A program made the position numbers and the translations under genes. From positions 1 through 64,000 of the forward strand of contig MEDY01000050.1 of the NCBI GenBank assembly GCA_001724265.1: DNA of 64,000 bases. Direction: 5' to 3'. The notes under the pieces were generated by a model. The model saw nothing but the letters and a program-made list of their open reading frames with translations. It was not told the DNA's origin and searched no databases. The DNA comes from Rhizaria sp. SCN 62-66 (lineage: Eukaryota). Below are positions 200 to 62,433 of this stretch, piece by piece (position 1 is the first letter of the stretch; each line of letters opens with the position of its first letter).

Positions 200-836
200 A
201 GTGTTTTAACCCCACCCGCACGAAACACAATGCTCTGCCCCCTTATATAACGGGGGGAGAAATCTCTCTTCATCTCCTTTCCTCTTCGAATACGGACCAT
301 CTTGCAGTGGTAGTAATACAACAAACTTACTGAAATCCCAATCTCTCTCGTCATCATGCCAACTTCTATTTGACTTTGCTGGGCGTTGCACAATCGTTGT
401 ATAGCGCTATAACTTGACTCTCAAGGATGATCTGAACTTGGACTTAATTTGTTTAATATTATCATCGCTCATATCGCACGTCTCCCTCTTCTACGCACAG
501 CGGCGATCGGCACCTTTTTGACCGACGTTCCTCGCAACCCTTCGTCCTCTCTCATGAGAGCGATCTGACGCCACAAACACTCTCTCCAATCAACAAGAGA
601 CGGTTGTAGCATATTTCCTTTTTGGTTGATTGCTATTTGCTGTTTTATTACGCTATAACTGCGTATCCGCGGTTGCTATGACGCCGCCCTCGCGCGCCCT
701 CGTCGCTCGCCATCCCAAAGCAAACAACTTCAAAAGCGACATCCGTACAGTCACAATCGATTCCAGTTGTCGATCGATCTCCCCACACGCTACTAAAACT
801 AGTTTAGCTGGCTTCTGTGGTGGTTTCAAGCGGAGT

Positions 837-1116
837 ATGATTTCGCTCGCTTTTGTTGGGCTCTTGCTACTCTCGAGCCTTGCTGCGACTGCTGCAGTTG
901 GCGCAACGACAGACAAGCCAGCTGTGCGTCCAGTTGACCCCACTGCGAGTGGCCATCGCGGTGCTGCCGAGAGTCCGCTACAGCTGCAGCTGTCCGTTGA
1001 TGCCCTGCTGTCTTAGTACGTAGGCTGCTTCAGCAACCCAGCCTCAGATCCCAGCTTCACGTCGTCTTTTGCGCTTCTGTCGCATCCAACACTGCTCTAT
1101 CTGCAACAACAATACC

Positions 1117-1154
<38 letters not shown>

Positions 1155-4100
1155 GCACAAGAGCAACAGCATAAGCAGAAACAGCAACAGCAACAACACT
1201 CGTCGTCATTGTCGCTGTCACTGTCATTGCCCCCGCGGCTGGTAGAGCTGTGTATCTCCCTCTGTCACGCCCACGGTCACTCATTCGCAGCGGTGGAGCA
1301 AGCCTCCCGTTGCTATTGCGCTCAGGCGCTGCCACGGTCACGCTTTACTGTCGCTACGACTAGCAGCAGCAGTGAGAGCAAAGCGTCTTCAGACGTGACC
1401 ACGCCACCATAGGTCAGTGACCTCAATGTGTGCAACACGAAGTGCTTTGATCCGAACGCGCAGCTTCGCAATGTGGGTGCTTCGAGTGGCATTGAAAGGC
1501 CCTGGGTTCCCTGCGGAGGCGTGAGCGCGGCCAGTTTGTACAGCACTGCGGTTGCGGGACCTCTCCTGCTGCGCACAGATGGGGCAAGTGGAGAGGAACT
1601 GACAAGCAGTCGCAGCAAGGCGAGCACGAATGATGTTAACAACAATGATGGTGATGATGCGGGTGCTGTTGAGACTGTGACGCTGCCGTTTGTGACTGTC
1701 ATCGTCCACGCTGCCGCCGCCCCTGACGCGGCCACCCCCTTTGCTCACGGTCACCCGAGCGCCCGCAGGCTTCCGCAGTCTCGCTCTTAGTCTGCCAGGC
1801 GGTCACGGACGCTTGTTGGCATGACCGAGCGAGAGGCTGATGCAGCTGAGGCGTACATCGAATCACTTTCCAACACAAAGAACAGCAACCAGAATTCAGC
1901 AAGCTCCGCCGCAAACCCGGCTCTAGTTAGGCCGCCCCCGGATGTGGTGTCGAATGCGGTGTGGTACCGCAAGGCGTCGGCCGTGGCGGCGACACTGCGC
2001 ACTGTGGCTCCAGTGGGTGTGAGCAGCAGGAGTCACAAAGCGAAGAGTGCTGAGACGAAGCAAGCTCACGACAACGTTGATGATGGTGATGAAAATGTAT
2101 GTGGTGATTTTGTCATGGTTTTGTGGGAAGACAGCAACAGTTAGAATAATGACAGCAGTGCAAATCACAATAGCGATGACTTCGATGTAACTGTGAACTC
2201 ATTGACTGATGCACTGACAGGCCAACCCCCCATTAGTCTCCTGAAATCACTCTTTCCCAACGACAATGTCACTCAAAGTCAAGCGGGTTTAAGTCATAAG
2301 AACGGTGTTGGTGCCGTTGTGTTTGCTCCGGGCAACACCACGATCACCACTGCATCGACTGATAACCCTGCGAGTAATGCCGTGCATGCTGTGTGGCGTG
2401 CGCGTGACTTTGTCAACACTGCGCTCGACACGCTTGAAGCCTCCGTTATGTCATTGTCATTTTCGCAAAATACGCCTAAAAATTCGCATAGGCGCTCAAA
2501 TGAGAAGCGTGATAAGTTTGACATTTGGTCAACAATGTTCTCGTCTTTCTCGTCGCCTGTTGCAACTGCATCAGCGATCGTGACTGTGACCAGTGACAAT
2601 GACTATGATGTTAACGTCAGTTTGAGTGAGAGTAGCTCAAGCGCGAGTGCTGTGCTGACCAACAAATTGCGAGTTCTCTGGCAGTCGCAGTCGCAACAGG
2701 CGCGCTCACAGACGCAGTCCGTCACAGCTGTTGATGCTACCACTGCGTCGATCCGCGCACGGCAACAACAGTTAGCCACGAGCTACGCACACCGTAATGC
2801 GCTTAAACGCGCACGCAAAGACGGTTCAGCTAGAGACATCACAACAAATAAGCTTGTGTACAACACTGCGACTGGAACGTACACGAACAAAACCATCACA
2901 AAGAAGAACGTAAAAGGGAATAATCGCTCTGTAAAGAGGCGATATAACGTTGTTTTTGAGCATTTTGCGTTCTTACTTCGCGCCGATGAGCTGCCCTTGC
3001 GGTGTCAAGTGATGCGCAAGTCCCTTACGCAGCTGTCATCTCAAAGCAGCGCTGGTACTTCTGAGAGACAAAACGCATTGTCATCCGACTTTTTCGGCCC
3101 CGCACATGGTGCGTACGCACTGCCGATGTGGTCTGGACTCAGCGACGACACAACCGAGCGTTATCCGCTGCAATCTGATCTCTATGTCGTCCCTTCGCAA
3201 TCGCATTTTAATAACTCTTCTGCTGGAAGTTCTCGGATTAGTACCCCTTCGCAGTCTCAGACACACAGCAATACTTATAGCAACGATGATATTCTCGCAA
3301 ACAAGCGCGCTGCCGCTGAAGCCGCTGCCGTTGCGGCAGAGGCCGTTGCCGCCAAGGCTGCCGCGCGCGCAGCCGCGACCGCTGCATTCGCCACAGCGCC
3401 CGGCCCCGTCGCCTTTGCGGGCTCACTCCTCCCCATGAACGCAAACATGAACGCTGACTCCAAGTCTGCGTCTAATCGCTCTTCTGTTGGCGGGATAGTC
3501 AGTGCTACTATTGCCGCGGCCCACGGCGTCCTCGTCGTTGGCGACCCCGCCGCGAGCGGGCTCGGCGCCCCGCGGGCCCCGCGGCTGCTGCGGCTGACGC
3601 ACCGGTGGCGAGTGCGCGGCGCGCTGGCCGACGTCGCGCGCCCGCCGTGGTTTCCACTCCACAAAGCGGCGCCGGCAGTCGCACAGTCAACCGCAACCAA
3701 CAATGGCTCTGATGTGGATAGGGGCAGCAGTTTGGGTGTCGGTATTGAGGTGTTGGCGCTGTGTGACCGCTGGCTCGGAGCTGAGGCCGCTGCAGTTGCC
3801 GCTGCTGGCGAAGCAGGCGCGCGCGCACCGGGCCTTGATGTCAGCACTGACGAATACGGCGTGCTTAAAGCACAACAGCATCAGCATCAACACAGTAGCT
3901 TAGGCTCTGCATTGAGAGAGAAACTGTACTTGGATTTGCCACCCTTACATCGCCCTAGCGGCAGTACGGTTCTTAACGCGACAAATACCTCTCTCTTCTC
4001 CGCAATGACACGCTCGCAGTGTCTGGCGTACCTCTCGGCCCACAGCCGCTCACTCGCGCTTGCGGCGACGCGACCCCCGTCCTTGCACGCCGCCGCTCGG

Positions 4101-6897
4101 CCCTACTGCGTCGCCGCCCACAGTCACTTATCTCCGACTGCGGCCCACAGTTACAGCCAGAGTCAGAGTCGCTTTGGTGACAGTGCTACGATGGCTGTTG
4201 TGAAGGCGGGCGCACAATGCTCACAGGGAGCTCTCATTCATCTCCACGCTCAAGGTAGATAAACTTAAGAAATCGCACTTATTTCGTTTAATCAACATCA
4301 TTTAGCTTTTATTTATGTTTAATCTCTTACAAAATTTGTTTTCTTATTGCTTTTGTCTTGTTTTAGCTTTAATCACTGCGGGTATTCTCTCGGATCCCTT
4401 TGACCTGTCGCTCCCCCTCCACTTCCCCACCGCACGCTCACAGTCTCTGAGCAAGCCTTCACAGTCGTCGTCGCTTGCGACTGTGATTCCCCTGTGGGCC
4501 CCGCACGCCCCCGTGGCGTCCCCGCTGGCGTTGTCCCGCGCCGTAGAGCACTGGGTCCACACCTCCGCCGCCGCCGCTGCAGCCACCGCCGCCGCCGCGG
4601 CCGCCGCAGCGGGCGCCGGCGGCGGCACCGGGCTCAGCGGCGGCGGGCGCGGGTTCAGGCCCGTGCCTGGCGCTGCGCTCACGCCCGGCGTCGACACAGC
4701 CGCGAGCGCTGCCAATGCAGCCGCGAATGCAGCAGTGGAGGCAGCGGCGGAGGCGCAGGCGCATCGCGGCGCGAAAGGCAACAGCGGTGGCGCGCAGTCT
4801 GGCACTAAGAGTGTGAATACCCGTCGCGTCACTGTCAGAGCGACCGTGGGCGTCAGCAGTGGCACCGTGGCCGCGTTCGGCGACCTATCAGCGCCCGTCT
4901 CGGCCTGGGCCGGCGCGGCGAACGCGGCGGCGACCGCGGCAGCGAGGTACGTCAAGCGGGCCAACGCGGCCGCCGGGGCTGCGGGGGCCGGCGGCGGGCA
5001 CGATCACGACCACAGTGGCGGTGGCGGCGACAGCGACGACGACGATGACGAGAAAGAAGAAGAACATGAACATAATCTTGAGCACAGTGATTCGCAATCG
5101 CATGCGGTGGCAGCAGCGCAGTTGCCGCCTTTGACGCCCGCAATGAACGCTTTGGCTGACAGCACTGCGCCGTACGTCCCGCCGCGGCTGAGTTTGCTGC
5201 TCGCGCGGCTTAACTTAAAGATCGCGCGGTGCGTCCGTGTCGCCATGACGATCGCCTGGCTGGCCGCGAATCCTGAGTTCCCTTCGAAGCACCACAAGAC
5301 GAAGCAGCTGCAGCAACAGCAGCAGCAAGAGCAAGAGGAGCGGCAACGCATGCCACTTTTCGACGGATCCAAGTACTCTCTAAGTCGCGCCTCTAAATAC
5401 CCTTCCCTGTCTAAGTACCCCCATCTAAGTGCTTCCTACTTCACCCCCGCGGACGCCCTGCCCTTCGCCTCCACGGCCACGCGCTGGGCCCGGCTGCTCT
5501 TGGCCACTGCGGCGTGGGAAATGGACCGTTACACTGCGCTGTACTACTTAGCCGTGGCGAGCGAGGAGGCCGGCGCGGAGACTGGGGACTACACCGAGCC
5601 CCTTACACTGGCGCTGGGGTACCTACACCGCGAGACCACGGCCCCGCTGTGGCTGCTGGAGCGCACCGCCGCTGCGCCGCTAGGGGACATCCACCAGGTG
5701 CACAACACGCTTGAGTCGCTGCAGACCCACTGGGCGGCCCGGGTTGCGCGCGCGCGCGAGGCGTCGGCCACCGCGACGGCGATGACGCGCGCACTCGCAC
5801 TCTCGGCCCTGAGCTCGAGTGACAGCAGTGGCCACGATGGTGACGATGAGTTGGCCAATAGTAGCAGCGGCGGCGGCGGCTGGGGCGTGTTGCAAGAGCG
5901 CGCGCTGCTGCTGCTCGACGGTGACGAGCCCGCGTCCTCATCCCCGGTCTCCGGGTCCGGCTCCGGCTCCAGCGCGACCTCAAGCGGCGGCGGCGGCGGC
6001 GGCATGGCCGTGGGCGGGTGGGAAAAGGGCGGCGGCGGCGGCGAGCGCGGGCAATACCGCGCCCCGCTTGCGGTCGCGGCCGCGGCGCTCGTGGCCGGAG
6101 ACTGGGGCGGCTGCGTTGGGTGGAGCACCGTGGCGCTGCTGTGGCGGCCGGGGCACAAAACCATCGGACACAGCAAAGGCAGCAGCAAAGACAGCAGCAA
6201 AGACAGCAGCAAAGACAAGAACATCAACAACAACGAGGACAAGCGCGTCGATAGCGACGGTGATGAAGACTTTGTGTATGCTGACGGGTACTCCGACCAG
6301 GACGAGTACGACGGCGAGGCCGCCAAAGCGGTCGAGGAGGCCGGCGCGCGGCTGATGTGGGAGCAGTGCCTCAAGTACCGCGCCCGGCTCGTCAAGGGCG
6401 AAGCCGCCGCTATCTCCGCCACAACCGCGGCTAAACAAGACGAACACGCTGCCAATATTGGGGTTATTGGTCAAGGGAGTGGTTTGCTGGAGGAGAGCGC
6501 CCGGAGTCTCCGGCGCCGGCAACGCGAGAAGCTGGGGCAGATCAGTTTGGCCAGCCTGCTGCCTTCACCCGCGCTGCCAGCGGCGCACAGCCAAACGCGC
6601 GGGGGAGCCGCCGTCGCCGTGCTTGGGCTCGCGATGCTCGCTACAGTTGTTCTCGCGGTGCTCTGGGCGGCGGGGCGCGTGCCAGGCGTCGGCTGGGGCA
6701 AGCGGGGGAAGAGCAAGCGGAGTGAGAGGGAAAATGGTGGCGGTGTTGGGATGGCAAGCGGCGAGGGCGTGAGGTTGCGTAGGGATAGGAGCGGGGTTCT
6801 GGGCGATTACAGCAGTAGTGACAGCGAGGAAGAGGACGGCAGCGCTGATGGGGCTCCGATCAGGCGCAGGCAGAATCAAGACCTGCAGCTGATGTAA
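837..6897 (+). CDS. WSC-domain type I membrane/secretory protein, ~1982 aa, with four in-frame TAG codons
   Basis: join(837..4254,4367..6897). Signal peptide MISLAFVGLLLLSSLAATAA. WSC motifs YVGCF...VELCISLCHAHGHSFAAVEQASRCYC...CNTKC...CGG...SLY all lie in one frame across TAGs at 1014 and 1410; further in-frame TAGs at 1788 and 2142. Intron 4255..4366 (GT..TTTTAG, phase 1) joins the next ORF. C-terminal TM segment AAVAVLGLAMLATVVLAVLWAA followed by basic residues. Ends TAA. Confidence 0.75.
1116..1154 (+). repeat. (CAA)13 microsatellite encoding polyQ inside the WSC domain
   Basis: Perfect CAA run read directly; in frame between YVGCF and the CxxxC motif. Confidence 0.9.
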
Positions 6898-12389: not shown

Positions 12390-15300
12390 ATGCCTGTACA
12401 AGGCTCGAATCCTGCGGCCCTCGATATCCTCTCGGCTGCCGTATCACGCCTCCGTATCTCCCCTGCCCGCCACGTGCTCTCACCTCTTTACTCATTCACA
12501 AACTGTTTCTCCTTTTTATGTTTATTTTATATCTTTTAGTGCGCTTTCTGTGTCCGTAACATCGCAGTAACACCCACAGGAGTCGTCCTTTAACTCCCTT
12601 CCCCCTCTCGCGTGCGTGCGACCGTCACACACACCCGAAACCACACACTTCAGCAGGACTGCTAACTCACCCTCCTTCCCTTTAGCCGTGTTCCCGCGAT
12701 GCTTGTCTCGTCCATCTCGCGTCCGGCCTACTCCCCGGCCGTGACGCGCGCGCTGGCCGCGGCCGCCACGCCCCAGGCCACCGCGACTTTGCGCCACGCC
12801 GCACTGCCCCCGCCGTCGACGGATCCTTCGACGTCGACCACCACGGCCTCCGCCTCTGCCGCCACGGCCGCCGCGCAGGGTCTCGCGCCGCGCCTTGCCC
12901 GCAGCCTGCTCGACGGCTCGTTCGCGGACACTCTGCTCGTGATCCGTCCCTTCTTCCCACTGTCCCCGCTCCCCCCCGGCTCCGAGGCCGCAGCCATTGC
13001 GTGCCCGCCGCAGGTCGCACTGACCGTGCACCGCGCCGTGCTCGCCTCGCGCTCCCCCATCCTTGCCTCGACCTTCTTCGGCGCGCTCGCCTCCGCCAAC
13101 AGCACCGGTGGCGCCGACAAGAACGCCAAGAATGCCAAGGGCGCGAACAAGAGCGCGAGTGCAGCCAACGGCGGCGTCGGCGATGAGAACAAGTGCAACA
13201 GCAGCGACTACATGACGCGTTTTGAGCTCATCCTGCCCCTGATTGCGCCCCCCGCGGTGATGACGGCCACGGCGCCCTACATCCTCGCTACCGCGGCCGC
13301 TGCGGCGCACACCGCAGCCTTCCTGCCGCCCGCCGTCGCCGCCGCGCTCACCGCCAGCGCCAGCGCCACGGCCGCAACTGTCGCGCGCGCCGCGGCCGTG
13401 CTGCCGCCGGACCACCTGGCGTGGGCCGCCACGGTCCAGGCCTTCCAGATCTTTATTGCGCATTTGTACCTTACCCCCACCATCGCAGACCTCGCCAGCG
13501 CAAACAACAACAACAGCAGCTCTAGCACGAGCTCTGGCTCTGGCTCTGGCTCTGGCGCTGCAGCGTCCAACGCGAACGCCGCCAACGGCGACTCTGGCTC
13601 CAGCAAGGCTGTCACCGTGTTTTCTAGCGCGAACACGATGAACAGCAACAACAACAGCAACAGCTCCGCTCGCGGCAGCGGCAGCGCGCGGCTGGCCCCG
13701 CAGGCGACGCTGCCGGCGCCGCTGGCCTTCGCTCTGCTGGAGCTGGCCAACTTCTTCGACGTGCCCGCCATCCGCACGCTCGCGCACCGCGCCTTGGTAC
13801 GCAGAAACAACCAATTCGCGTCGTCTTTCATTCACCATGTTGCTGTTGGATCCCTTTATGCTTGACTCTCTTCTCGCTATCCTCATGTCCTCACACAATG
13901 TGTTCTCTCCGACCTTTTGCTTTCTGCTTTGTTTTTCTTGCTCTCAACGCTACTCCAGGCCCCGTCGCTGTCTCTGCGGTCCGCGGCGCGGCTGCTGCGC
14001 GACGCTGCGCCCTACGCCGCCGCCGCGCCGCTCGTGTCTGACGCCGTGGTGGCCTTCGCGGAGCACGCCGACGACATCTTCCGCCGCGGCCACCACCTCG
14101 CGCTGCCCTTCGAGGTTTTCCACGCGCTCCTGGCCTCTGCCGCCGACGTCGCGCCCGCCACCCACGCCACGGCCACCGCGGCCGCCGCCGCCACGGCCGC
14201 GCTGAGCCAGACCAGCAGCAGTAGCAGCAGCCTCAGCGGGCTGGGCGCTGGCGGGCCGCCCGGGCTCGCGCGCGCGGGGTCGCTGCTCACTGCCACGGCG
14301 GCGGCGCGGAGCACGGCGGGCTCCCCGCTGCCCGGGCTGTGCGCGAGCGAGCCCGTCGTCGCAGAGGCCATCTGGGCCTGGATCCTTGCTAATAGGGCCA
14401 CGCGCCGCCAAGTACGTCCATTTCACTCGCTAAAGATAAATACTGCAATCTACTTGTAATATACTGTGTATTCAAACAAATTTAATGTTTATTATAAGAT
14501 TCATTGTGAGCATTAAAAATCGTTTCACTCACTTTGCACTCGCGCACTTCTTGTTTCTTGTTTCTCTCGTTTGTACTCCTTAGGCGCGCGCCCTGCTGCT
14601 GACGCTGCGCCTGGGCGGCCTAGCGCTGGACGCGCTTGTGGCGCGCTACCTGGGTCCCGTGCTGACGCCCGCCGAGCTGTCCTTCGCCCTGCGCGCGCGC
14701 GCCGCCGCCGAGGCTGTGCTCCGTGCCCGCGCGCCCGTGGCCTGGGAGAACTGCCGCCTTGTCGCCGCCGCTGCCGCCGCCGAGGCCGCCGCCGCGGAGG
14801 CCGAGGTCACGGCGGGCTCGGTCGCGCGCGCTGCCGCCGCCTCCGCCGCCGCGGCCGCGGCCGCCGCCGCAAAGACCCCCGGGCACGTGAGCTCGACGGT
14901 GTGGTGGCAGCCACAGTCGCCTGGCGGGCCTATCGTCGCCGACAACGCCGCCTACACCGCGGCCTATGCGCTCTTCCCGGCCGCGCTCTTCGCCCCGTCC
15001 GGCTCCGGCAACGGCCCGCTGGCGGCTGGGCTGAGCAACACGTTCGTGGGCGCGCTGTCGGCCGCGCGCAGGGCCTGGGAGGCGCAGGGCATCGCCGGCG
15101 CGCGCGCGGGGGCCGCCGCGGCTGTGGCGGCCGCAGAGGCCGCGCAGGCGCGGCTGCCGTCGCGCTTCGTCAACGCCAGCGCGGGCGGCAAGAGCAACAA
15201 CAGCAGTGGCATCACCGACTACAAGAATAAGAACAAGGTTATTGCGAACATCAAGGGCAAGAACAACAACAGCGCGAGCTACGAAGTGATCCCGACGCTG

Positions 15301-18300
15301 CGCTACTGGGCGCGCATCCCCGCCGTCGTCGTCCCCGGCAGCGGCGACGACGCCATCAACGCCCACACCGGCAGCACTCTGGGTTCCGGCACCCCCCGCA
15401 GCGCGACCCACGGCCTCCTCCCGTCCAGCGCCGGCATTGGCATTGGCGCTGGATCTAACGCTGGCGCGAGCTCTGCGCTGAAGCAGCAACCTGCGCAGGG
15501 CACCTGCATCGCCGTTGGGCTCGAGAACCACCCCGCGGCGTACCTTTACTCCGAGCTGCACCGCGTCACCAACATCAACGCCAACAACACGACCACCGGC
15601 GGCCGCAACGCAGGCAACGCCGCGCTGCTCCAGGCCAGCAGCGGCTCCATGCCCAGTCTGCTCGACGGCCCCAGCAACGCCGGCGGCATCGGCGGCAGCT
15701 CCGGCGTGGCGGCGGCGCGCGCGTTTAACCGCATGGCCTCGCGCCACAACCTCATCATGAACACCTCCGGCGCCAACAACAACGCCAACGCCGGTGACGG
15801 CAACTTCAGCAGCATCGCGCAGTACGACAACGACACCTCCGCGGTCGCCGCCGCCGCCGAGGCTGCGGCGCAGTCGCTTGAGTCCGCGAGCGCGCTCATC
15901 GACCGTCGCGAGGGCGACCGTGTCGCGCGGCTTAACTTCCTCTCCTCGCTGTCGCCGGCGCTGGCGCGTTGGGTGAACCGCTTCGCACTGCCCGTGACCA
16001 CGGCCTCGGTCTTCCACGAGGTCACCGCCACGGCCACGCCCGCCGCCGCCGCCGCCAAGGCGCGCGCCACGGCTTTCCCCACCGCCTCTGCGGTCAACAG
16101 CCACCTCAAGGACCTCGACACCGGCGCCGCGGCGACTGCGACGGCGGCCGCCCGCGGCCCCGTGCGCTCCGGCGTGACCCTGCGCGAGCTCCTCGCGGGC
16201 GCGGGCACTGGCCACTACTCGCGCGCGCGCTACCTGCAGGCGATGCGCAGCGCGGGTGCCTCGAGCGAGGCCGTGGACTACGCCGCCGCCATCCTGCCCG
16301 TCGAAGACCCCCTGTTCTGCCCACAGTCCAACAGCAGCGGCAGCGGCGGCTTCCTCGCTGCGGCGGCGTCGAACAACATCATCAGCAACCTCGACGAGTT
16401 CCCGCCCGTGTACTTCCCGTGGACGTGTCCGTCGTGCTCGCGCCTCGTGACGCCCGCCGCGCTGACCAGCCACAGCATCCGGCTCCAGACGGGGCCCGTG
16501 GCGCGCGGCGCCCAGTGCCAGTGCGGCGCGCGTCCGCCCCCGGCGGCGCTGAGTCCGCTGCCCGTGGGCTACTGCTGCTCGCGCTGCACCGCCTTCTCCA
16601 TCGGCAACGGCGACCGCAAGGCCTGGGGCGGCAGCCTCGCTAACAGCGCCAACAACAATAGAAACAGCAACAACGCGAACGAGCTCGTTGAAGCTGTGGG
16701 TGCACCGCTCATGAACAAGGCCAACCACGTGCTCGCGCTGACGGCGTGCCGCGAGGTCATCGAGGTGCTCACCACGACTCGCAACGCGCGCGAGAGCATA
16801 GAGAGGGGCAACGCCAAGGCGCTGGTGAACAAGGCGCTCACCGCAGACAACACCAGCGGCAAGGCGGGCAAGAAGCCCGCTGGCAACAACGGCAATGATG
16901 CAGACGAGGAGGACGGCCCCAGCGGCGGCGCCAAATCTTCCACTGCAACTGCGATTGAGGAGCCTGACGCGCTGGCCGTGACCACGGTGGGCGCGGCGCA
17001 GATCCGCACGGCGCTGGCGCGCGCCGCCAACGGCACCGCGGCGAACACGGTTGCGCTGGCCGCGCTGGAGAAGGAGCTCATCAGCCGGCTTGTGCTGGAC
17101 CTGGTGCTGTCGCCGCAGCAGCTCGCTCTGTCATACTACGCCACGCCGAACGACAGCGGGCTCGGCGAAAGCACCTACTACGTACGTCGCAAATTTAAAC
17201 AAAAACAAAACAATGAAATGAAATGAAATGATTGCTTCAATGTAATTCAACTACTTTTATTTACTCCTGAACATCTCTAACCAATATCTTGTCTTTTGTG
17301 TCTTTTTCGCTGTTTTACACCATCCATCATGTCCAGGGCCGCACGATCGAGCCCCGCTGCCACGTGTGCGACTCGCCCTTCCAGCAGCCCTCGGCGCCCG
17401 CGCCCACGGAGGGTCCCGGCGACGGCAACATCAACGCCAACGTGCCGGCCGACTCCGCGGTGCCCATCCTGCGCCCGATGTGCTGGAACTGGGACAACGC
17501 CATCTTGTCCCCGCCATCGCTGTCTCTGTGTGGCGAGCTCCGCAACTTCATCCCGCCTCGCTTCCTTGCCGCGCTCGACAAGACGGCCGCCGCGCTTTAC
17601 CTCGGCGCCGCCTGGGCGCTGCCCGACCCCAACGCCGCAGCTGCCGCCGCCGCGAGCAAGACCGGCGGCGCTGGCGCGAACGCTGGCGGGCCGAACTTGC
17701 TGACCGACGCCGCCACGGCCGCCGCCATCGCCGCCTCGGCCTCCGGCAGCTCGGGCTTCGCTGCTGCAGGCTCAGGAGCGGAGGCGCGCGTGAGCACCAC
17801 GGGCGGCGTCCCCGACTCGCGCGCCGTCGTCATTGCCAAGGCCGAGATCCTCGTCGCCAACGCCGCCGCCGCCGTCTCGAGCAGCGCAAGCTTGATCGCC
17901 GAGGCGTCGCCCGAGACGCAGCTACTGCTGAACATGATTGCCCCCTTGCACCCCTCGCCGCTCGACTCCGAGCAGTCCCCTTCTGCCGCCGCGGCCGCCG
18001 CCGCAGCTGCTAAGTCGGGCTCCGCGTCCCTGTCCGTTATTAACTACACTGGCGCTGGTGCCGCCAGCGGCGACGGCGAGGTGGTCACGGCGCTGTCGTC
18101 GCCTGTGCCCGCCCCTGCGCTGCCGCTGGGCTCGCCGTCGTACCTGTCGCCGCTGCCGTCCTGGCCCGCGCCGCTGGAGCCGCGCCTGCCGTCGCCGCGC
18201 CATAGCACGCGCACGCGCTTCCTCGTCATCGGCGCCCGCTTCGCCGCGCGCACATTTGCGCCGCTGCCGCGCAGCTACTTGCACTGGAAGCGCGCCACGG

Positions 18301-18827
18301 CCGCGCGCTCGCTCTCGGCGCCGCAGCCCGACGCCAGCGACGCCTTCACCCTCGCCTCGGTGACGCCCGCCGCGCTGGCCGCGCTGCCCGCCGCCGCGGC
18401 CGCGGCGCTGCTGGCGCAGTTCGACGCCGTGCTGCTGCTGTCAGGTGGCCGCGGCGACATGAGCGAGAGCGCGCGCAACCCCGTCCCCTCGTTCAACAAC
18501 AACAACAGCTCCAGCTCGAGCTCGAGTGGCTCTAGGTCCGGTGGGCGCCGCGTGCTGTTCGCCGACTCGGCCGACGTAGTGCCCGTCGGGACCAACAGCA
18601 GCGACAACGTCGACAACGGCGGCTTCGGCAGCGCCACGGGCAACGTGCCGCTGCTGCGCGACCTGATGCTGGCTTACGTCGCCAAGGGCGGCTCGCTGGT
18701 AGCCGAGGCGGAGAACTGTGTGCTGTCGAGCAGCGCGCTCGACGGCAGCAGCCTCGCCTTCCGCACCAGCGCGCCCACCGTCGCGCCGATCGACGACGAG
18801 GAGACCGTGGCCGCGCCCGCCCTCACC

Positions 18828-18879
<52 letters not shown>

Positions 18880-21191
18880 GCAGCAGCAACAGCAAGACCG
18901 GCGTGCTGAGTGCGCTGCGGTACACGCAGGCCGACGCGCTGGCGGCGAGCTACCGCATCAGCGCCAACACCAGCGCCGCCGCCATCAGCAGCGGCGACAG
19001 CGACCCCAACGCGGGCGCCACCGCCCCGCTGCGCATCTCCAACACGCTCCCCGCCGCGCCCCCCGCGCCCTCAAGCTCTGGCGCCGCGACTGCGAGTGCA
19101 AGTGCTGAGCTGGCACACGGCGTGCTGTTGTGCCCGCCCGTGCCGTCGCCGCTCGCGGGCGATATGCCGCAGCTGCACTGGCTCCTGACGGGCACCCGCG
19201 ACGCTAACGGCTACGACAACAGCACCAGCAGCACCAGCAGTAGCGGCGATAATGGCAGCGCTGGCGCGGCCGCTCCGGCCGCGACGGCCACCGCTGCTGG
19301 AGCCGTCGCCGGTGCTGCGGCTGCGGCCGCAGCTGCGACGGCCGCGACGACCGCAAGCGGTCTGGTGAGCACCACGAACCTGACGAGCGTGGACGGCGCG
19401 GCCTCCGCCGCCAACGGCAACGACAGCACGATCGGCCTCCTGGCCGCCGCCGCCTCCGCCGCCGTCTCCGCCGCTAACAACAACAACAGCAGCAGCAGCA
19501 GTGAGAGCAACGGGAGGAAGGACCCCAACGAGGAGTCGGTCGACGACATCGCTGCCACGATCACCGCCCTCAACACCGAGGCCGCCGCCCTCACCCCCGC
19601 CAGTAGCAACAACAACAACAGCAGCAGCGGGAGCAAGGCTGTGGCCGCCGCGGTGGGTCCCGGCGCGTGCTTCCCCTCTCTGGTGCCGCACTGCTACCTG
19701 CGCCTGCCGCCCGCGTCCCGCACCCATCGAGGCCTCTGGGCCGCGACCGCGCCCCTCACCGCCGCGCCCCTCGCCGCCGCGTCCGCCGCCGCTGCAGCCC
19801 AGTCAAACAACGCCAATGCCCGCACCGACGCCCAGTTCATCTCTAGCGTTAGCTCTAACCCTCGCTCCAGCTCTAGCTCTAGCGCAGGCACGGCGGTGGT
19901 GGCCGCGGACGGCAGCGCGCGCGGCCGCAGTATGGGCGTCGCAGTTTTTGCCGAGCCCGGCGCGGCGGCCGCCTCTGGCGCGGTGGGCGGTCAATGGCAC
20001 CACGTGATCGAGTGCGACGTGCTGCTCGCGCTGCCCAGCGACGCCCTCGCGCTCGTCACCGCCTTCACGCCCGCGCCCGGCTACTCCGCCGCCGCCGCCA
20101 CCAACTCCGGCCCCCCGATCGTCAGCAACATCCCCACGGGCGGCGGCGCGGGCGGTAACGGCAGGAGCGAGCCCGCGCTGGTGGCGGTGCCAGTGCCGCC
20201 CACAGTCGCCAGCACCATCCGCGGCGTCGTCGCCGCCTCGCCAGTCACCTCCACCGTCCCCCACGGCAACAGCAGCGCCGGCACCGGCGCTGGCGGCGTG
20301 ACGGCGAGCCCCAGTAGCCCTAACGCTGCCGCGGCCGCCGCGAGCGCGAGTGCGAAGAAAGCCAGCCGACGGCCGCTGCAGCGCGCGCTGTCGCCGCTGG
20401 TGCCGTGCGCGTCTGTCGAGCTGCTCATCCCGCCCGTCCACAGCGTCTCGCTGCCGCACTTGGCATCGCTGCGCGCCTTCATCGCGGGGCCCTACGCGCC
20501 GCGCACCGCCGCCGCCGCCGCCGCGCTCGCCGCAGCCGGCTTCCCCATGTCCTCTCAGTCTGCGCAGGCCTCTGAGACGCAGGCGCTGGCGCAGGCGCAG
20601 CTGCCGCTGGTGCTGAAGCGCGTGTCGAACCCGCGCGCGGCGACGGGCGCGGCGGTGGGCGGCGTGCGCGCGCCGGTGTACGACGTGTTCGGACTGGCGC
20701 GGCGCGACTTCGTGGTTCCCGCCATGGACCGCCAGGACGAGCCCATCGTGCTGCAGGACGACAGCAACAACACCGCGCACACCAGCACCGCCGACTCGAG
20801 CGCGAGCAGCACGGCTGTGGCGACAACCGCGGTGGCTGCTTCGACTGCTGCTCCTGCTGCTGCGGCTGCGGTTGACTTGCGTCGCTTGGCGCCCGTGCTG
20901 TCCCTGGGCGCGCTGGACGACGCCGTGCACGCGGTGCTGGGCCAGACGGCCGGCATCGAGACGCGCGGCCTCACGCGCGGCGGTAGTGTCATCTTCACCT
21001 CTTTCTCGTTCAACCGCAGCGACAGCTCGATGAGCGCGCTCGAGCAGCAGATGGCGCTCGCGCTGATGCTGCGCGCCGGCCGCAGCTCCGCCATCCGCGC
21101 CGAGGGCGACACGCGCCGCGTCGTGCTCGGCGACGCGCACGCTGTCGTCAACGTCTTCAGCTTCGACAACGCCACCGCCGCGCGCGCGTAA
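12390..21191 (+). CDS. Large BTB/POZ-BACK-like domain protein with Cys-rich segments, ~2710 aa
   Basis: Model join(12390..12473,12580..12611,12686..13796,13959..14411,14584..17181,17337..21191); all junctions are GT-AG and keep frame, but the first two exons are tentative. BTB motifs: FADTLL, VHRAVLASRSPIL, AFQIFIAHLY, LLELANFFDVPAIRTL. BACK-like motifs: HLALPFEVFHALL, LCASEPVVAEAIWAWI. Ends TAA. Confidence 0.75.
18828..18878 (+). repeat. (AAC)17 microsatellite encoding poly-Asn
   Basis: Perfect AAC run within the last exon of the BTB gene. Confidence 0.9.
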
Positions 21192-36147: not shown

Positions 36148-36153
36148 GAAGTG

Positions 36154-36226
36154 TGTAGCTTGGGGGCATTGATCCCCCTGCCCCGCGCATGCTAAGCGCA
36201 TACTCTACCATCTGAGCTAAAGCCAC
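36154..36226 (-). tRNA. tRNA-Ala (anticodon AGC)
   Basis: Minus strand GTGGCTT-TAGCTCAGATGGTAGAGT-A-TGCGC-TTAGCAT-GCGCG-GGGCA-GGGGG-ATCAATG-CCCCC-AAGCTAC-A gives a 73-nt cloverleaf with the G3:U70 alanine identity pair and A73 discriminator. Confidence 0.95.
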
Positions 36227-55227: not shown

Positions 55228-58200
55228 TTACCGCATCTGATGGTGGTGGTGCAGCAAGTGGCCATTCCCCCCTTGCTGCTGCTGCTGCCTGTTCACGCCA
55301 CCGCCGCCGTAGCCGCCGTGGCCGCCGCGGGCGAGCGCGATGGCGGCCTCCTGCAGACTGGCGACGTCGTCGGCCATTGCGTGCTGGTCCTCGCTCATCA
55401 TCTGGCTCGGCGCGTCGGTCGGGGGCGCGCCGCCGATCTCGGTTGCCGCGTCCACCGCATTGGGCGCCAAAGGAGCAGCGCCCGCGACGCCGTCGACCTC
55501 GGAGTTGCCCTCGCTGCCGCTGCCGCTGAAGCCAGAGCCGGCCTCGGAGCGCGGGGCCACGCCGGGGCCCGAGGCGCGGGTGCTGCGCCCGCGGGTCTTG
55601 CTCGCGGCGCCGCCCTAAGTCAGGAACAAGAGGCGAAACACAGAAATAGTGAAAAAGCAATCAAATGAGATGAAGTAAGAAAAAACAGAGTCGGAATACA
55701 ATTTAAAAGAAATGAAACAAACGAATCATAAAATTGAAACGAGTGAAAATAAATATAAATGTTTTTTAAATCATATTTTTCTGTTTTGCGTACCTTTTGG
55801 CGGAAGCCCGCAAGGCCGAGCCCGAGGCCGATGCCGGAGCCGGTGGGTCCGCGCAGCGGTGACGCGGCGGCGGCGTCGGGGTCGAAGCGGTCGCCGCCCT
55901 CGCCGTAGTCCTCGTCCTCGTCCTCGGGCTCACGGTCGTCGTCATCGTCCTCGTCCTCCTCTTCGTCGTCGAGCGGGTGCCTGTGCCCGCCGCGGTGCTT
56001 GCGGCCGTGGCGCCCGCTGCCGCCGCCGTGGCTAGAGCTCACGCGCTCCTCGTCCTCGTCCTCGTCCGCCGCGGCCTCCGCCGCCGCCTCGAGGTATTCG
56101 GCGCCCGTCGTCGCGCTAACCACCGCACCGGGGGACCGCATCGACTCAGGGTCAGGGCTCTGGACCGCCACGTCGATGATCCGCACGCGGTTCCTGTTGT
56201 TACCGTTGCCGTTGCCATTGCCGTTGCCGCTGCCGCTGTGGCCGCCAGTCGCGCGCTTGGGGGCGAGCGCGGCGGCCACCGCGTCGTCAGTGCTGTGCGG
56301 GTGACCGTGACGGCTACTGCTGCTGCCGTTGTTGTTGTGAGAAGGGGATTTGGTCATGGCGACTGAGAGACCTGCGATGCCGCGCTTCGCGGCCGCGGCG
56401 TTGGCTGCAGCGTTTGCGTTGGCGGCGGCGTCAGCGTCGGCCTCGGCACCGGCGCCGGCGTGCGCGTTGACGGTGGGTGCGGGGATCGAGGTCGAGGGCC
56501 GGGAACCGACGCTGATGCGGTGCGGCATCGCGGCGGCGGCGGCGGCGGCGTTGACGCTGATGACGCCGAACAGGTCCACGTCGTCCACCGTGACGGCAGT
56601 CAGTGCTGCGTGGTCGCCGTTGTCGTCAGCGAGGATGTCGCCGGCAAGGCTCTTGTCGACACCAACAGCAGCGCCGCTGCTGTGCGCCGCCGCGTCGCCG
56701 GCCGTGGCTGCGGAGCCGCCGCTGCGGCTGCGGTTATGGTTCCTGCCGCTGCCGCTGCTGCTGCTGCCCGCCGCCGAAGCCGTCGCCGCGGCGGTCGCTG
56801 TTGCGGTCGTCGCGGCCACAGGTACCGAGCCGGAGCCGGAGCCGGCGCTAGAGGCATCGCCAGCGCCAGCAGCGCCAGCGCCAGCGGCGGCGGCGGCGGC
56901 AGAGGCGGGGACTGCGATGTGGCGGTCCGAGCCGACGGGGCTAGCGTCCGGCGACGGGGACGGCGAGATCGAGACGGCGGAGGCCGCGGCGACGGCGGCG
57001 GCGGCGGCCGTGGTAGTCGTGCGCCGCGACAGTGACGGCTGCGACGGCGGCTGCTGGTGCTGCTGGCCGCTGGCGACACTGCTGGCGCTGCTGGTGACGG
57101 CGTTGTTGTTGTTTGCGGCAGGGACGGAGCCGGCGGCGCTGATGATCGAGCCGTTGCGCGAGGCCGGTGCGACGCTGGCGGCCGCGGCGCCCGCGGCACC
57201 GGCGGCGAAGCCCGGGGCGGCTGCGGGGGCGACTGCGGCCTCGGAGCGGCTGCCGCGGCTGCTGGCGCGCTCGGCGGCGGTGCTGTGCAGCGGCGAGGCG
57301 TTGCCCGCGGTGCTCGTGTTTGCGTGCGTGCCGATGGCGTTGTTGTTAAGGTTGTTGAGGTTGAGCCCGTGCGCGTGTGTGTTGAAGCTCGAGTGTGAGA
57401 TGTTGGACCCGGATCTCGGCATCGCGGCGCCAGAGGCCACGTCGCTCGCCACATTGTTGTGACTGTTGTTGTTGTTGTTGTTGTTGTTGTTGCCGTTCGC
57501 GTGGCCGTTGTGGTTGTTTGTGGTGACGAGCGACATGCCAGTCGTGCTGCCCGCGTAGTTGGCCACGCTGCCGTTGTTGACCGTGCTGCCGGCCACCGCA
57601 GGGGCGCGCGCAGTGGCGACCCCGAGGCTCACGCCCGCCGCGGCCGCCGCGGCCACGGCCGTCGCGCCGTTGATGAGCCGGTGTGGCCGCCCGCCCTCCT
57701 GCCCGTGCGCGCCCATGCCGCCGCCGCGGCCGCCACCGCCGCCACTGGCATCGGCGCCCGCGGGGTGGTCCGGGGCGTCGAACTGTCCGGAATAGCCGAA
57801 GCCGCCGTAGCCGAACGAATCCTCGTCGAGCGGCTCCAGCGCCGTGGCCGGAGCCACCCACTCGCTCGTGCTGCCTGCGTGCGCGCTCGACCGGCGCCGG
57901 TCGCGGCGCGCCGTGGAGCCCGCCGCCACGGTCACCGTGACGGGGGACCCCGCGGCGACGCCCGTGGTGTTAGCGGAGGAGCGGCGGCGCGCTGAGTCGA
58001 GGGCGGCGCTGTTGCTGCCGCCGTTGTTGTTGTTGTTGTTGCTACTGTCGGCGGGCTGCATGACCAGGAAGCCGCCGATGCGCGTGGGCCGCGACGACAC
58101 GCTGTCGCGCTCACGGTCACTCTTGCTGTGGGCCGCAGCCGCGCTCGCGCTCGCGGTGTTAGCCCCGTGCGCGTGGCTGTCGCGGACGCTGGCGTCCTTG

Positions 58201-61019
58201 GTGGCGCCGCTGGCGACACTCGCGCGCTCACGGTCACCCGCGCGGTGCTCACGGTCACCCGTGCGCTCACGGTCACGGTCACTGCGGCGCTCACGGTCAC
58301 CCGTGCGTTCACGGTCACCCGTGCGCTCACGGTCACCCCGCGGCTCACGGTCACCACCGCGCTCACGGTCGCGGTCGCTGCGGTGCTCACGGTCCTTGCG
58401 GTGCTCACGGTCACCGCGCTCACGGTCGCTGCGGCCACTCTTGCGAGCAGAACTGCCACCGGCAGCGCTCGCGGCAGCGGCAGAGTCAGCGGCAGAGGCC
58501 TGGAGGGGCTTCGTGGGAGTACCAGACGCAGTCGCCTTGGTCTTGTCTCTGCTCTCGCCCTTGTCCCTGCTGCTTTTAACCTTCTCTTTGTCAGCAGCGG
58601 CAGCCGTGCTCGTGTTGCGCCCGCGCCCGCCGTTGTCGCCTCGGCTGCTCTCGCCGCCGCCGTCGACGGGCGTGGCGCCCGCCGCCGCGCCCGTGGCGCC
58701 CGTGGCCGCGGTGGCGCTGGCCGTGAGCGGGTACGGCGACAACCCACCCCGGTCGTCGATGCCGTCGTGCTCGCCCACCGTCGTCGCCGCCGACGCGCCG
58801 GAGTCGAGCTGGTCCTTGCTCACCGGGGACGCCTCGGCGCCAGTGTTGCCGTCGGCGGGCACGCCCGTAGCCGTCGCAGGGACCGGGGTGCCGTTGCCGT
58901 TGCCGGCGCCGCAGGACTGGTGGCGGTTGCTTCTGCTGTTGTTCAGAGTACCAGTCGCGGTCGCAGTGCCAGTCGCGGTCCCGGTCGCCGTCACGGGGGT
59001 CCCCGGCTTGTTGGGGGTCTCCGCCGCCGCGGCGGCCGCCTTGGCCGCGACGGCAGCCTTGGCGGCCTCAGCGGCGGCGACCTCGGCGGCGGCGGCGATG
59101 ACGGCGGCCGTGAGCGCCGCGCCGCGCGCCGTGGGCTGCGCGTTGGGCGCCCGGATCGCGGCCACGCCGGCCGTCGGGTCGCCCTTCTCCTGAGCCTCGC
59201 GCCAGCGCTGTGTGGCCACGGCGGCCGTCAGGTCGTACCACTGCCCCGCGAGGTAGCGGTCAGGCGCGCGCACGAGCCCTGAGGCGACCATAATGGCAAC
59301 GTTGGACAGCAGCCGGCGCGCGTAGGCGAGCACGACGTTGTTCTCCTTGTGGACCTCGATGGCGGCACGGACGAGCGCAATAACAGAGCCGTAGATGATG
59401 GGCTTGGTGCCCTCTGGCGGGTGCACGATGGGGATCATGCCGGGCAGCGTCGTCGTCACCACCACGGGCGCCGGCGGCGCGGGCATCTTGTGCGGCGCGT
59501 CCGCGGCGGCCGCAACAGCAGAGTGGGGCTTCGCAGAGGCGTTGACCGCGTTGGCGGTGTTGTTGTTCGCATCGCCGTTGACGCTGTCGACGCCGCCGTC
59601 GTCACCGCCGCCGCCAGCAGCGCCGCCGTGGGCGTCGGCGTGCATGTCGCGGTCAATGCGCGCCGGATCCAGCAGCGACTTGTCCTTGAGGTACCGCTCG
59701 AAGGTCTCGGGCACGCCCCCCGGTGCGGCGGGCCGCTGCGGGTCCCCGGGCTCGCAGTCGAAGTTGTCCAGATACTCGCGCGCGATCTCTGCGTCCACAG
59801 CGGCCTGATCCGCTGGGTCCCAAAGCCCCAGCGCGGCGCCGAGGGTCTTGCCGGCCAGCTCGGCGGCCTCGGCGGCCACGGCCGCGGCGGTTGCGGCCGC
59901 CGACTCGACCGCCGCGGCGGCCTCGTCGTGCAGTCTCTGCTGCTGGGCGGGGCTGGCCTGCGCGTCGGATTGACTGTGCTTCGCGCTCTTGTTGCCACTG
60001 CCGCTGCCACTGCCGCTGCCACTGCCGCTGCCGTTGCCGTTGGAGGCGAGCGTGTCGTCGATGTGCGTGTTGAGCAGGCGGCGCGTGCCGTGGCCGGCAC
60101 TGTCGGCCGTGATGGCCATGATTGACGCCAGCGCGGGCGTCGCGACGGCGGCGCACAGCAGGTGCTTGGCCAGCGTCGAGGCCAAGGTATCGAACACGCC
60201 GCCCTGGCCCAGGGGACCGATGGCGAGCAGCACCTGGTAGCTGGACTTGACCAGCTCGTTAGTGGGCTACAGCACGGTCGAGAAGGTGATGACGTCGCTG
60301 AGCAGCGCGGGCACGCCGGCGTCGACGGCCGCCGCGCGGTCTGCGTCGTTGGTGACGAGGTAGCGTACCAGGTCGCAGGCGTGCGTGGCGATCGACGCGT
60401 GCTCCTTGCCCTTGCACGCGCGTAGCGTGTCGCAGCAGATCGCGAACACCGGCTTGTGGCGCGTGATGGACATGGCCTTGGGCTCGCCGCGCGCGCAGCG
60501 TGTGACCTGGGAGATGGCCCGCAGCACCCACTCGCGCGCCTGCAGCGTGTGCACCGTGGCAAAGGCCGCCGTGAGCAGCGGCACCACGTCGGTGATCATC
60601 GCCGCGCGGTTCTGCTCCGTGCCGCCGTGCGACACGTTGACGATCGTGGTGCAGTAATGCCGAAGCATGTCATCCGAGAGCGCAGACACGTTGCGCAGCT
60701 CCTGCGTCGCCGTGGCGACTGACTGCGTGAAGGCTGCGATGCGGCGCGCGCGGCGCGTGTCGTGGCCGCAGTACGCCATCGAGTCCGAGTGCAGCGACGA
60801 CGCGTCGCCTTGCTGGGTGCGCGTGATGGTGCGCAGAGGGCCGCCGAGCGGGGTCGAGTCGGGCTTGTAGTCGTCCCCCGCGCCGCCGCCGCGCGCGCCG
60901 CTGCCGCCGGCCGCGCCGTTCGCGCCGCGGGGGCGGGACTTGCCCCCGTTGCGCGCGCGCTGCTTGGTGTTGCCACCGGAGCTGCCCTTGCCGCCCGGAG
61001 TGCTGCCGCAAGCGCCCAT
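55228..61019 (-). CDS. N-acylated armadillo-like helical protein with long disordered C-terminus, ~1870 aa, with one in-frame TAG
   Basis: complement join(61019..55794,55614..55228). ORFs 60267..61019 and 55620..60233 share a frame and are separated only by TAG 60269..60267 (FSTVL*PTNELVKSSYQVLLAIG). MGACGS N-terminus. ARM-like helices include HACDLVRYLVTNDADRAAAVDAGVPALL. Intron GTACGC..CTGACTTAG. Ends TAA. Confidence 0.72.
58225..58430. repeat. Imperfect tandem repeat built on GCTCACGGTC(AC), encoding GDRER/DREHR mixed-charge repeats
   Basis: About 11 units of 15-24 bp, each containing (C/T)TCACGGTC; translated on the minus strand as SDRERGDREHRKDREHRSDRDRERGGDREPRGDRERTGDRERTGDRERRSDRDRERTGDREHRAGDRER. 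Confidence 0.85.
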
Positions 61020-62433
61020 GCTGTAGCTGTCGAGTCTGCTCTCTCGCTCTCTGTGGGCGCGCTCTGCTGACTGTGTTCTCTCTGGGGCTCGCTGGCGCTC
61101 TCGCTGTTCGCGCGCTAGTCGGGGTGCCGCGGGGGAAGAGTTACGCCGCGCTGCTGGGCTGCTGCTGAGCTGCTGCGGGGGGTGATGCTGGCACGCGGCG
61201 CCGAGTCAAAGGGGCCTCTCTCTAGGCTAAGTGGGCGCTTAAGGGGCGCGATGAGCTGGCGTGTGCGGGCCGGGGGCGGAGAGCGGCTGGGGGAACCGGA
61301 CGGCGCGCGCGGGAGAGGGGCCGAGGCTGCCTCGGAGCGTGCGGAGAAGCGGCGCTCGCGGACGAAGGCACGGGCGGGGGAAACAAGGCACACGGGATTC
61401 GGAGGTTGCTGGGCCGTGCGTCTGTCCGAGCCGCGCTTAACGGAGAGAATTCAGAGGATAAAAGAGGCATGACAGTGAGATACAGGGTTAAAGAACATTA
61501 AGTGATTACATGTAGCGGAAAAAAGGAGCAGCAGGTGCTAAGACTGCGGCTTGGGACGCATGCGGAAGGAGAGGTATCTGCTTTTCGCCGACCAGTGGAG
61601 CATGCATACGACTTCGTTTAGCACGCCACCTGAACGCGTAATTCGCATTGCAGATGAAATTACGGAAGGCAACTACATATATTGTGACAGAGGCTATCTA
61701 AATTCACCGTCAAAATTTCGCCGAACGACGCCAATGCCAAGAAATGCACGGCCTAACGAATTCAACTCCATACCATCGCTCGACGCTGTGTGCAGACACC
61801 CCTCATAGTAATCCTTTTACTCTCACTTGTGACTGACAGCCCAACTGCTCGCCAACCGACGACGTGTCGGCGATTCTTTGAGAGTGCAGTGGGCCTTTTT
61901 TTGTCCGATAACAAGAACATTGCCGACTGTTTTGCGCTTTTTGCTATGCAATTTATATGATCCTTATTTTGTTTTTCTTGTAGTGCTTAGCATTCTGTGC
62001 CGGCAACATCCGAACCGTGGCCCACTCGACGGTCAAGCTCGCAATGCGTTGGTCCTCTCTCTCACTCGGTCTGTCCCCTTTCTTCCCCGCTTTTTACTAA
62101 TGCCACTTATTTTTCGGACATCTCGAAGTTAGTTTACTTATCTCAGCGATTGGTTCACTGCTATCAAGCTTTTCCTGACGTCTATCGCGTCACCCCTCTC
62201 CTCCCAACGGGTGTCTCCGCGCAGCAACCGCCGCAGTCACTCGCCGCTGTTTCACGCTCAGGCCGCTGCCATAGCGATTGCAACACCTGCAGCGCGCTCT
62301 GCCTTTGCTTGGCACCTGCAGTCGTAGGGCCCTCGCGGCTACTCCTTGTTGTTTCGCGCGTCCAGCCCTACTACACTCTTGCGTCACGACATTCCATCAC
62401 AAGCTCGCGAACAGGCGTTTCTCTCACACAACA

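Follow-up and report, generated by a model that had tools for sequence, protein, structure and literature searches.

Only a handful of eukaryotes are known whose nuclear genetic code separates UAG from UAA. The rhizarian exLh reads UAG as Leu and Iotanema spirale reads it as Gln; in exLh, 384 in-frame UAG codons occur in 71 genes, whose terminators are 56 UAA and 15 UGA, and UAG is rarest in the highly expressed genes (PMC5304391). In phyllopharyngean ciliates, found in metagenome-derived genomes, UAG means either Leu or Gln and UAA is the preferred stop, and the same work cites Protocruzia tuzeti, with UAG as Gln, and Scotinosphaera, with UAG as Ser (PMC11687900). NCBI translation table 15, in which TAG is Gln, is used by crAss-like phages (PMC9523058), and an acidic meaning is found in Blastocrithidia, with UAR as Glu (PMC12153298), and in a ciliate with UAA as Lys and UAG as Glu (PMC10553269). 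Here we analyze a stretch of 64,000 nucleotides (nt) from Rhizaria sp. SCN 62-66 (positions 1–64,000 of contig MEDY01000050.1, assembly GCA_001724265.1; hereafter the window), in which two protein-coding genes, one for a WSC-type membrane protein (837–6897, plus strand) and the other for a protein with an armadillo-like domain (55228–61019, minus strand), contain in-frame TAG codons.

We consider it likely that this organism decodes UAG as an amino acid and terminates translation at UAA and UGA, because in-frame TAGs occur in two otherwise intact genes, in one of them within a conserved domain that is continuous in the homologs, and because there is neither an in-frame TAA or TGA nor a window gene ending in TAG. 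This assignment, put forward in the initial annotation of this DNA, is now supported by the TAG at 60269 in the second gene, across which the homologs are continuous, by the lack of TAG among the gene ends and by the exclusion of assembly error. Across 20 in-frame segments from 15 genes, with a total of 15,851 codons, we counted five TAG and no internal TAA or TGA, so that the alternative foreseen in that annotation, TAA and TGA in frame as often as TAG, is not what the window contains. The gene ends (n = 14, a small sample, inferred from open reading frames (ORFs) and splice-site look-alikes) comprise 11 TAA, 3 TGA and no TAG; the chance of finding none would be 0.044 if TAG terminated 20% of the genes, and TAG does not behave in the window as a common terminator, another alternative that had been raised. 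Four further TAGs at which ORFs end (4303, 14581, 33085, and 55617) were rejected as gene ends, being located within introns or at 3′ splice sites.

The pattern resembles that of exLh and Iotanema in that the in-frame stops are exclusively UAG and the genes end in UAA or UGA, and that of exLh also in the low use of TAG in strongly biased genes; conversely, UAG is abundant in those two organisms, where many conserved columns served to establish its meaning, whereas here there are five codons and one informative column (PMC5304391). With the phyllopharyngean ciliates the window shares the separation of UAG from UAA, the dominance of UAA as terminator and the discovery from metagenomes (PMC11687900). 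As in the phages that use table 15, TAG is the sole reassigned stop, although the phage recoding concerns late genes and the Gln assignment is without support here (PMC9523058). In the literature consulted, supplements aside, we found no report of a GC-rich eukaryote of sludge or bioreactor origin with a UAG-only code; UAG-only reassignment being already known in a few eukaryotes, the host is a probable further case.

The stronger case is TAG 60269, which was overlooked in the initial annotation, rather than the four TAGs of the WSC-type gene. The gene that contains it starts with MGACGS at 61019, is formed by exon 1 (61019..55794), an intron (55793..55615) and exon 2 (55614..55228), and ends with a TAA at 55230–55228; the deduced product shows, after the MGACGS start, an armadillo-like domain of ~250 residues and a long low-complexity tail. 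Two minus-strand ORFs, 60267–61205 and 55620–60266, are in fact one frame cut by this TAG (60267..60269, codon 251), and the GC content at third codon positions (GC3) is 0.92–0.96 on either side of it. When 1.84 billion representative proteins were scanned with HMMER, nine matched at E ≤ 0.001, of which two were the host's own pieces, six were homologs spanning the TAG position and one was a weak repeat match. The spanning homologs are P0010 (64% identity, 1,331 amino acids), encoded on an 18-kb JGI contig, and P0011 to P0015 (39–43%); by BLASTP, the second gene product and P0010 are 63% identical over residues 62–321 and collinear over residues 62–1455. All six homologs have Asp in the column of TAG 60269, within the most conserved block of the alignment (FSxxL-D-xxNELVKSAFQVLLAIGP). 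An AlphaFold model built from the six-row alignment is an all-helical solenoid (predicted local distance difference test, pLDDT, 81.9; predicted template modeling score, pTM, 0.77), whose best fold matches in the PDB are armadillo-repeat proteins (TM score 0.5–0.59, E ~5e-3). The residue corresponding to the TAG falls in an interhelical loop at mid-domain, where eight helices precede it and four follow; since the armadillo-like fold has helices on both sides of the TAG, the polypeptide must continue through it to form the domain.

Some other features of this gene family deserve a comment. The family has no match in Pfam and only six homologs among the 1.84 billion representatives, and its MG[AV]C start resembles an acylation motif. 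Among the large Atlas clusters, the one closest to the armadillo-like family is eukaryotic and most often labeled Bacillariophyta, which we take as a lead only; an Atlas look-up with the APRT-like protein gave no indication of the lineage. An affiliation with the aphelid Amoeboaphelidium, which we also considered, gained no support; that taxon is cited for UAR as Gln and not for a change of UAG by itself. Additionally, P0006, from a 4.7-kb ENA contig, is 99–100% identical to residues 264–330 of the second gene product and becomes unrelated past a Gly-Ser repeat; it is either a rearranged copy or a chimera created by assembly across the repeat.

The WSC-type gene consists of exon 1 (837..4254), an AT-rich phase 1 intron (4255..4366; GTAGAT...TTTTAG) that keeps the frame between both exons, and exon 2 (4367..6897), which encodes, close to the C-terminus, a hydrophobic stretch resembling a transmembrane segment and terminates in a TAA at 6895–6897. 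When only TAA and TGA are counted as stops, the frame from 630 to 4262 (1,211 codons) is open, and its sole breaks are four TAGs; likewise, the read-through translation of 837–4262, which begins at an ATG, has 1,141 residues, with non-standard steps only at codons 60, 192, 318, and 436. The initial annotation had described five ORF fragments (630, 1209, 1428, 1821, and 2193) sharing one frame and separated only by TAG, which is borne out by the ORF list and the translation; it also mentioned six sites, and this exon contains only four. These are TAG 1 (1014..1016, codon 60), immediately 5′ of the sequence for YVGCF; TAG 2 (1410..1412, codon 192), in a variable loop within the WSC-like domain; TAG 3 (1788..1790, codon 318); and TAG 4 (2142..2144, codon 436). 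Within 837–2195, the gene frame contains four TAG, no TAA and no TGA, while the other two plus-strand frames are interrupted by 12 and 28 stops, TGA for the most part.

With TAG read through, the product would have ~1,980 residues, arranged as a hydrophobic signal-like N-terminus (MISLAFVGLLLLSSLAATAAVGA), a WSC-like domain, a long low-complexity region rich in Ser, Ala and Asn, a hydrophobic anchor and a short basic tail; it looks like a type I membrane protein. The signal-like N-terminus lies upstream of TAG 1014, and the cysteines of the WSC-like domain are found on both sides of TAG 1410. WSC domains (PF01822) have eight conserved cysteines, and here eight occur at residues 64, 139, 143, 159, 161, 199, 203, and 226, of which the first five precede TAG 1410 and the last three follow it. 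The domain (1017..1544) contains a poly-Gln insertion of ~55 residues, encoded by a (CAA)n-rich tract at 1104–1200, between the first and second cysteines; this tract probably explains the small word shares that we observed in many unrelated sequencing runs. The domain had been described as complete, which goes too far: the sub-sequence 1209–1592 scores above the Pfam gathering cut-off (28.7 bits, E 1.5e-6; cut-off 27.8) and the whole protein, with 20.7 bits, is under it, both hits together cover only the core of the profile (positions 11–65 of 82), and the flanking YVGCF and CxxxC...CGG parts fit the WSC pattern only by eye. The best results of a PDB sequence search with the WSC region were weak matches to the WSC domain of Kremen-1 (E 0.6–0.8), and a single-sequence AlphaFold model of the region was too poor (pLDDT 49) to examine disulfide pairing. 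A tblastn comparison of the 5′ region of the gene against the window did not reveal any paralog.

A flank test based only on GC3 could not separate the sense frame from one of the antisense frames, and we therefore used a strand-specific codon-usage score trained on eight Pfam-supported ORFs (7,106 codons). Among the 3,220 stop triplets in the six frames of the window, only three had both 60-codon flanks above 0.25 bits per codon: TAG 2142, TAG 60269 (flanks 0.55 and 0.65) and one antisense TGA whose flank contains another stop. Looser settings of the score also flagged TAG 35547(−) and TGA 11506(−), each of them antisense to a plus-strand gene, TGA 33874(+), which is out of frame, and TAG 55617(−), which is a 3′ splice site; the four were rejected. 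Along exon 1 of the WSC-type gene, the gene frame was the best of the six in three of five segments (1413–1787, 1791–2141, and 2145–3000), was level with an antisense frame in 837–1013 (0.03 vs. 0.04), and was below frame +1 in the poly-Gln segment 1017–1409 (−0.29 vs. −0.01). Overall, the score of exon 1 was weaker than those of the neighboring genes, and its GC3 was only 0.44–0.71.

Besides the small sample of gene ends, several observations weigh against UAG being a sense codon. TAG is very rare, with five occurrences per ~15,850 codons (~3 per 10,000), and is found in two of the 15 genes in 64 kb, the other 13 lacking it; moreover, only one of the five is in a conserved column. All the TAGs of the WSC-type gene are within the first 436 of its ~1,980 codons (the 5′ 22%), and the chance of such a clustering under an even spread is ~0.002; the low GC3 of this region does not fully account for it, because the segment 2196–3300 has an equally low GC3 and no TAG. 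The only tRNA gene that we identified in the window with Rfam was that for tRNA-Ala(AGC) (36153–36226, minus strand), and hence within this window there is no tRNA(CUA); neither was there an eRF1 gene among the window ORFs scanned. By contrast, suppressor tRNA genes were found in the phyllopharyngean ciliates (PMC11687900). Lastly, none of the contigs listed for runs on record as RNA crosses a TAG; among the contigs listed, those from run X9 at 2861–3156 are exact, and one from X13, which is probably DNA, is at 1430–1659.

The rarity of TAG and its restriction to two of 15 genes, together with the packing of four of them in a 5′ region with weak codon bias, could also be explained by nonsense mutations under the standard code, be it that both genes are young pseudogenes or null alleles, or that a decayed WSC 5′ region precedes a shorter gene. 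TAG is in addition the commonest expected product of nonsense mutation, with a share of 0.36–0.42 in 837–2195 and of ~0.75 in the GC3-rich second gene, where most random hits would be TAG anyway. The argument in the initial annotation that random decay should also produce TAA or TGA is thus real and, at the same time, modest: from the codons of the exon itself, the chance that four of four hits are TAG is 0.02–0.03. We nonetheless regard decay as unlikely. Two genes with five nonsense hits show no frameshift and no TAA or TGA in ~3,860 codons, and identical TAGs appear in assemblies from different studies and years. Since nonsense changes make up 3.1–3.9% of substitutions, four hits in 452 codons (1.36 kb) imply ~100–130 substitutions; however, the next 686 + 842 (~1,530) codons of the WSC-type gene contain neither a stop nor a frameshift, and this intactness is a stronger argument against decay than the TAG-only pattern. 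Decay also fits poorly with the second gene, in which TAG 60269 occupies an invariant Asp column and an Asp codon needs two base changes to become TAG, and with the fact that none of the 14 gene ends is TAG. A shortened WSC-type gene, moreover, would presumably lose the signal-like N-terminus and yet keep the C-terminal membrane anchor.

A second explanation is that UAG is still a stop, which a near-cognate or low-level suppressor tRNA reads through at a useful rate at these sites; the code would then be leaky or ambiguous rather than reassigned. Inefficient decoding would agree with the scarcity of TAG and its concentration in an exon of weak codon bias, although the five TAGs are followed by T, G, T, A, and C, with no common downstream motif visible, and the losses would multiply if one gene required four readthrough events in a row. 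Given, in addition, that TAG was never the terminator among the 14 gene ends, we find readthrough an improbable substitute for a reassigned UAG.

It is still less probable that the TAGs never reach the ribosome, either because very short in-frame introns are removed or because the mRNA is edited. A 21-nt string around 60269 (GTGCTGTAGCCCACTAACGAG) does start with GT, end with AG and contain ACTAAC, and TAG 1014 and TAG 1788 follow a pyrimidine-rich CTTAG. However, the spliceosomal introns that we deduced from the sequence of the window are AT-rich, 110–220 nt long, with GTACGT, GTACGC, GTATGT or GTAGAT at the 5′ end and YAG at the 3′ end, and the surroundings of the TAGs do not resemble them. 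Also, excision of the 21 nt at 60269 would delete the L-D-x-x-N-E block that is kept by the six homologs.

Finally, a sequencing or assembly error, for which the initial annotation had proposed a check, can be discarded for practical purposes, because a JGI contig (L001, 2,721 nt) is identical to window positions 215–2935, with no mismatches and with the four TAGs of the WSC-type gene, contigs from run X4 of a separate study (2025) carry TAG 1410, TAG 1788, and TAG 2142, and the upstream ORF piece ending at TAG 60269 is recorded from seven contigs. The X4 contigs cover 1237–1792, without differences, and 1766–4377, with one difference (at 4143); the latter is unspliced across the intron at 4255–4366. 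A metagenome scan gave a single match, the identical 2.7-kb contig L001, and scans of prokaryote genomes and viral contigs gave none. Likewise, when the armadillo-like region, the 5′ part of the WSC-type gene with its TAGs and the homolog alignment were used in protein word searches, only the host's own pieces plus P0013 and P0015 were retrieved, and among them there was no variant from another strain or species with a sense codon at any of the TAG sites. Run X5, with a word share of 0.23, may correspond to a related strain.

If UAG is a sense codon, as we favor, the residue that it specifies can be approached from one site only. The polar surroundings of the TAGs of the WSC-type gene (S*Y, P*V, S*S, and S*N) are variable or of low complexity, and protein searches did not retrieve any homolog that could be aligned to these four positions. 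The sole informative column is then that of TAG 60269, which is Asp in six of six homologs. Of 43 columns that are invariant in at least five homologs, 38 have the same residue in the second gene product, whose real changes are conservative (T/S, T/M, and Y/F); an invariant Asp column together with conservative changes elsewhere favors, at this one site, a polar or acidic residue. Judging from the alignment, Glu or another polar residue would fit the Asp column at least as well as Gln, and the Glu codon GAG is one base from TAG; Gln or Ser would also be plausible, with Leu, Trp and Tyr less likely. The column thus does not favor Leu, the meaning of UAG in exLh (PMC5304391). Precedents for Glu, a conservative fit to this column, exist in Blastocrithidia and in the ciliate with UAG as Glu, although in both of them UAA is also reassigned, while here UAA is the main terminator, with 11 of 14 gene ends (PMC12153298, PMC10553269).

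The initial annotation considered UAG to be probably Gln, for which we found no direct support, as the TAGs of the WSC-type gene lack aligned homologs and the informative column is Asp throughout. Precedent still favors Gln, since a single base separates the anticodon of tRNA-Gln(CUG) from CUA and lineages with UAR or UAG as Gln are numerous (PMC5304391, PMC11687900); by this analogy, we would name Gln as the leading candidate, with somewhat less than even chances. Glu is possible and clearly in doubt, a residue other than Gln, Glu or Ser is rather unlikely, and Ser itself would be a surprise. We can only tentatively suggest, as a rather unlikely combination, that UAG stands for an acidic residue (Glu or even Asp) with UAA and UGA as stops, in a code at an early stage in which the codon is nearly absent from strongly expressed genes. 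In the literature consulted, we found no nuclear genome reported with UAG as an acidic residue plus UAA and UGA as stops, and such a meaning would make this a variant of the code with a new assignment for UAG.

As to the mechanism, UAG would be decoded by a CUA-anticodon tRNA carrying a polar residue, and eRF1 would have lost or weakened its recognition of this codon, with UAA serving as the main terminator and UGA also being used. A codon that is young, or that is decoded inefficiently, would fit the rare use of TAG and its occurrence chiefly in an exon of weak codon bias. Because TAG is used sparingly in a GC-rich genome that prefers TAA as stop, this could be an early-stage case, and each new lineage of this kind tests the routes by which a stop codon is captured, namely suppressor tRNA first, eRF1 change first, or an ambiguous intermediate. 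In practical terms, standard or bacterial gene callers truncate the host proteins at TAG; the public protein collection stores the resulting pieces separately, and the host genes are therefore mis-annotated there.

The window as a whole is eukaryotic nuclear DNA. It includes genes for a protein kinase, a UBE2O-like E2, a COMM-domain protein, a Nol11-like protein, an APRT-like protein, an arginase-family protein and a PhyH-domain protein, and the tRNA-Ala(AGC) gene is in an AT-rich spacer adjoining the UBE2O-like gene. The coding sequence is GC-rich, with GC3 values of 0.75–0.95, and the combination of such values with spliceosomal introns of 110–220 nt is unlike typical ciliate genomes. Runs containing this stretch are bioreactor and wastewater metagenomes from several studies; the uncultured organism, known from such metagenomes only, is present in runs X1–X4, and a contig of ~107 kb is on record. 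Four plus-strand ORFs in 12666–21191 (12666–13796, 13958–14413, 14584–17208, and 17343–21191), with AT-rich introns between them, appear to be one gene of ~2,700 codons, for which there was no Pfam match except for a weak BTB hint. The 5′ edge of the window is the end of a ribosomal protein gene of the uS4/S9-like type, and this 3′ end (1–307) includes ~110 nt past its TAA. In run X13, the word depth over 1–307 is 392, ending there in adapter, and that of the neighboring DNA is only ~0.2–8, which suggests that host mRNA is present in the X13 library.

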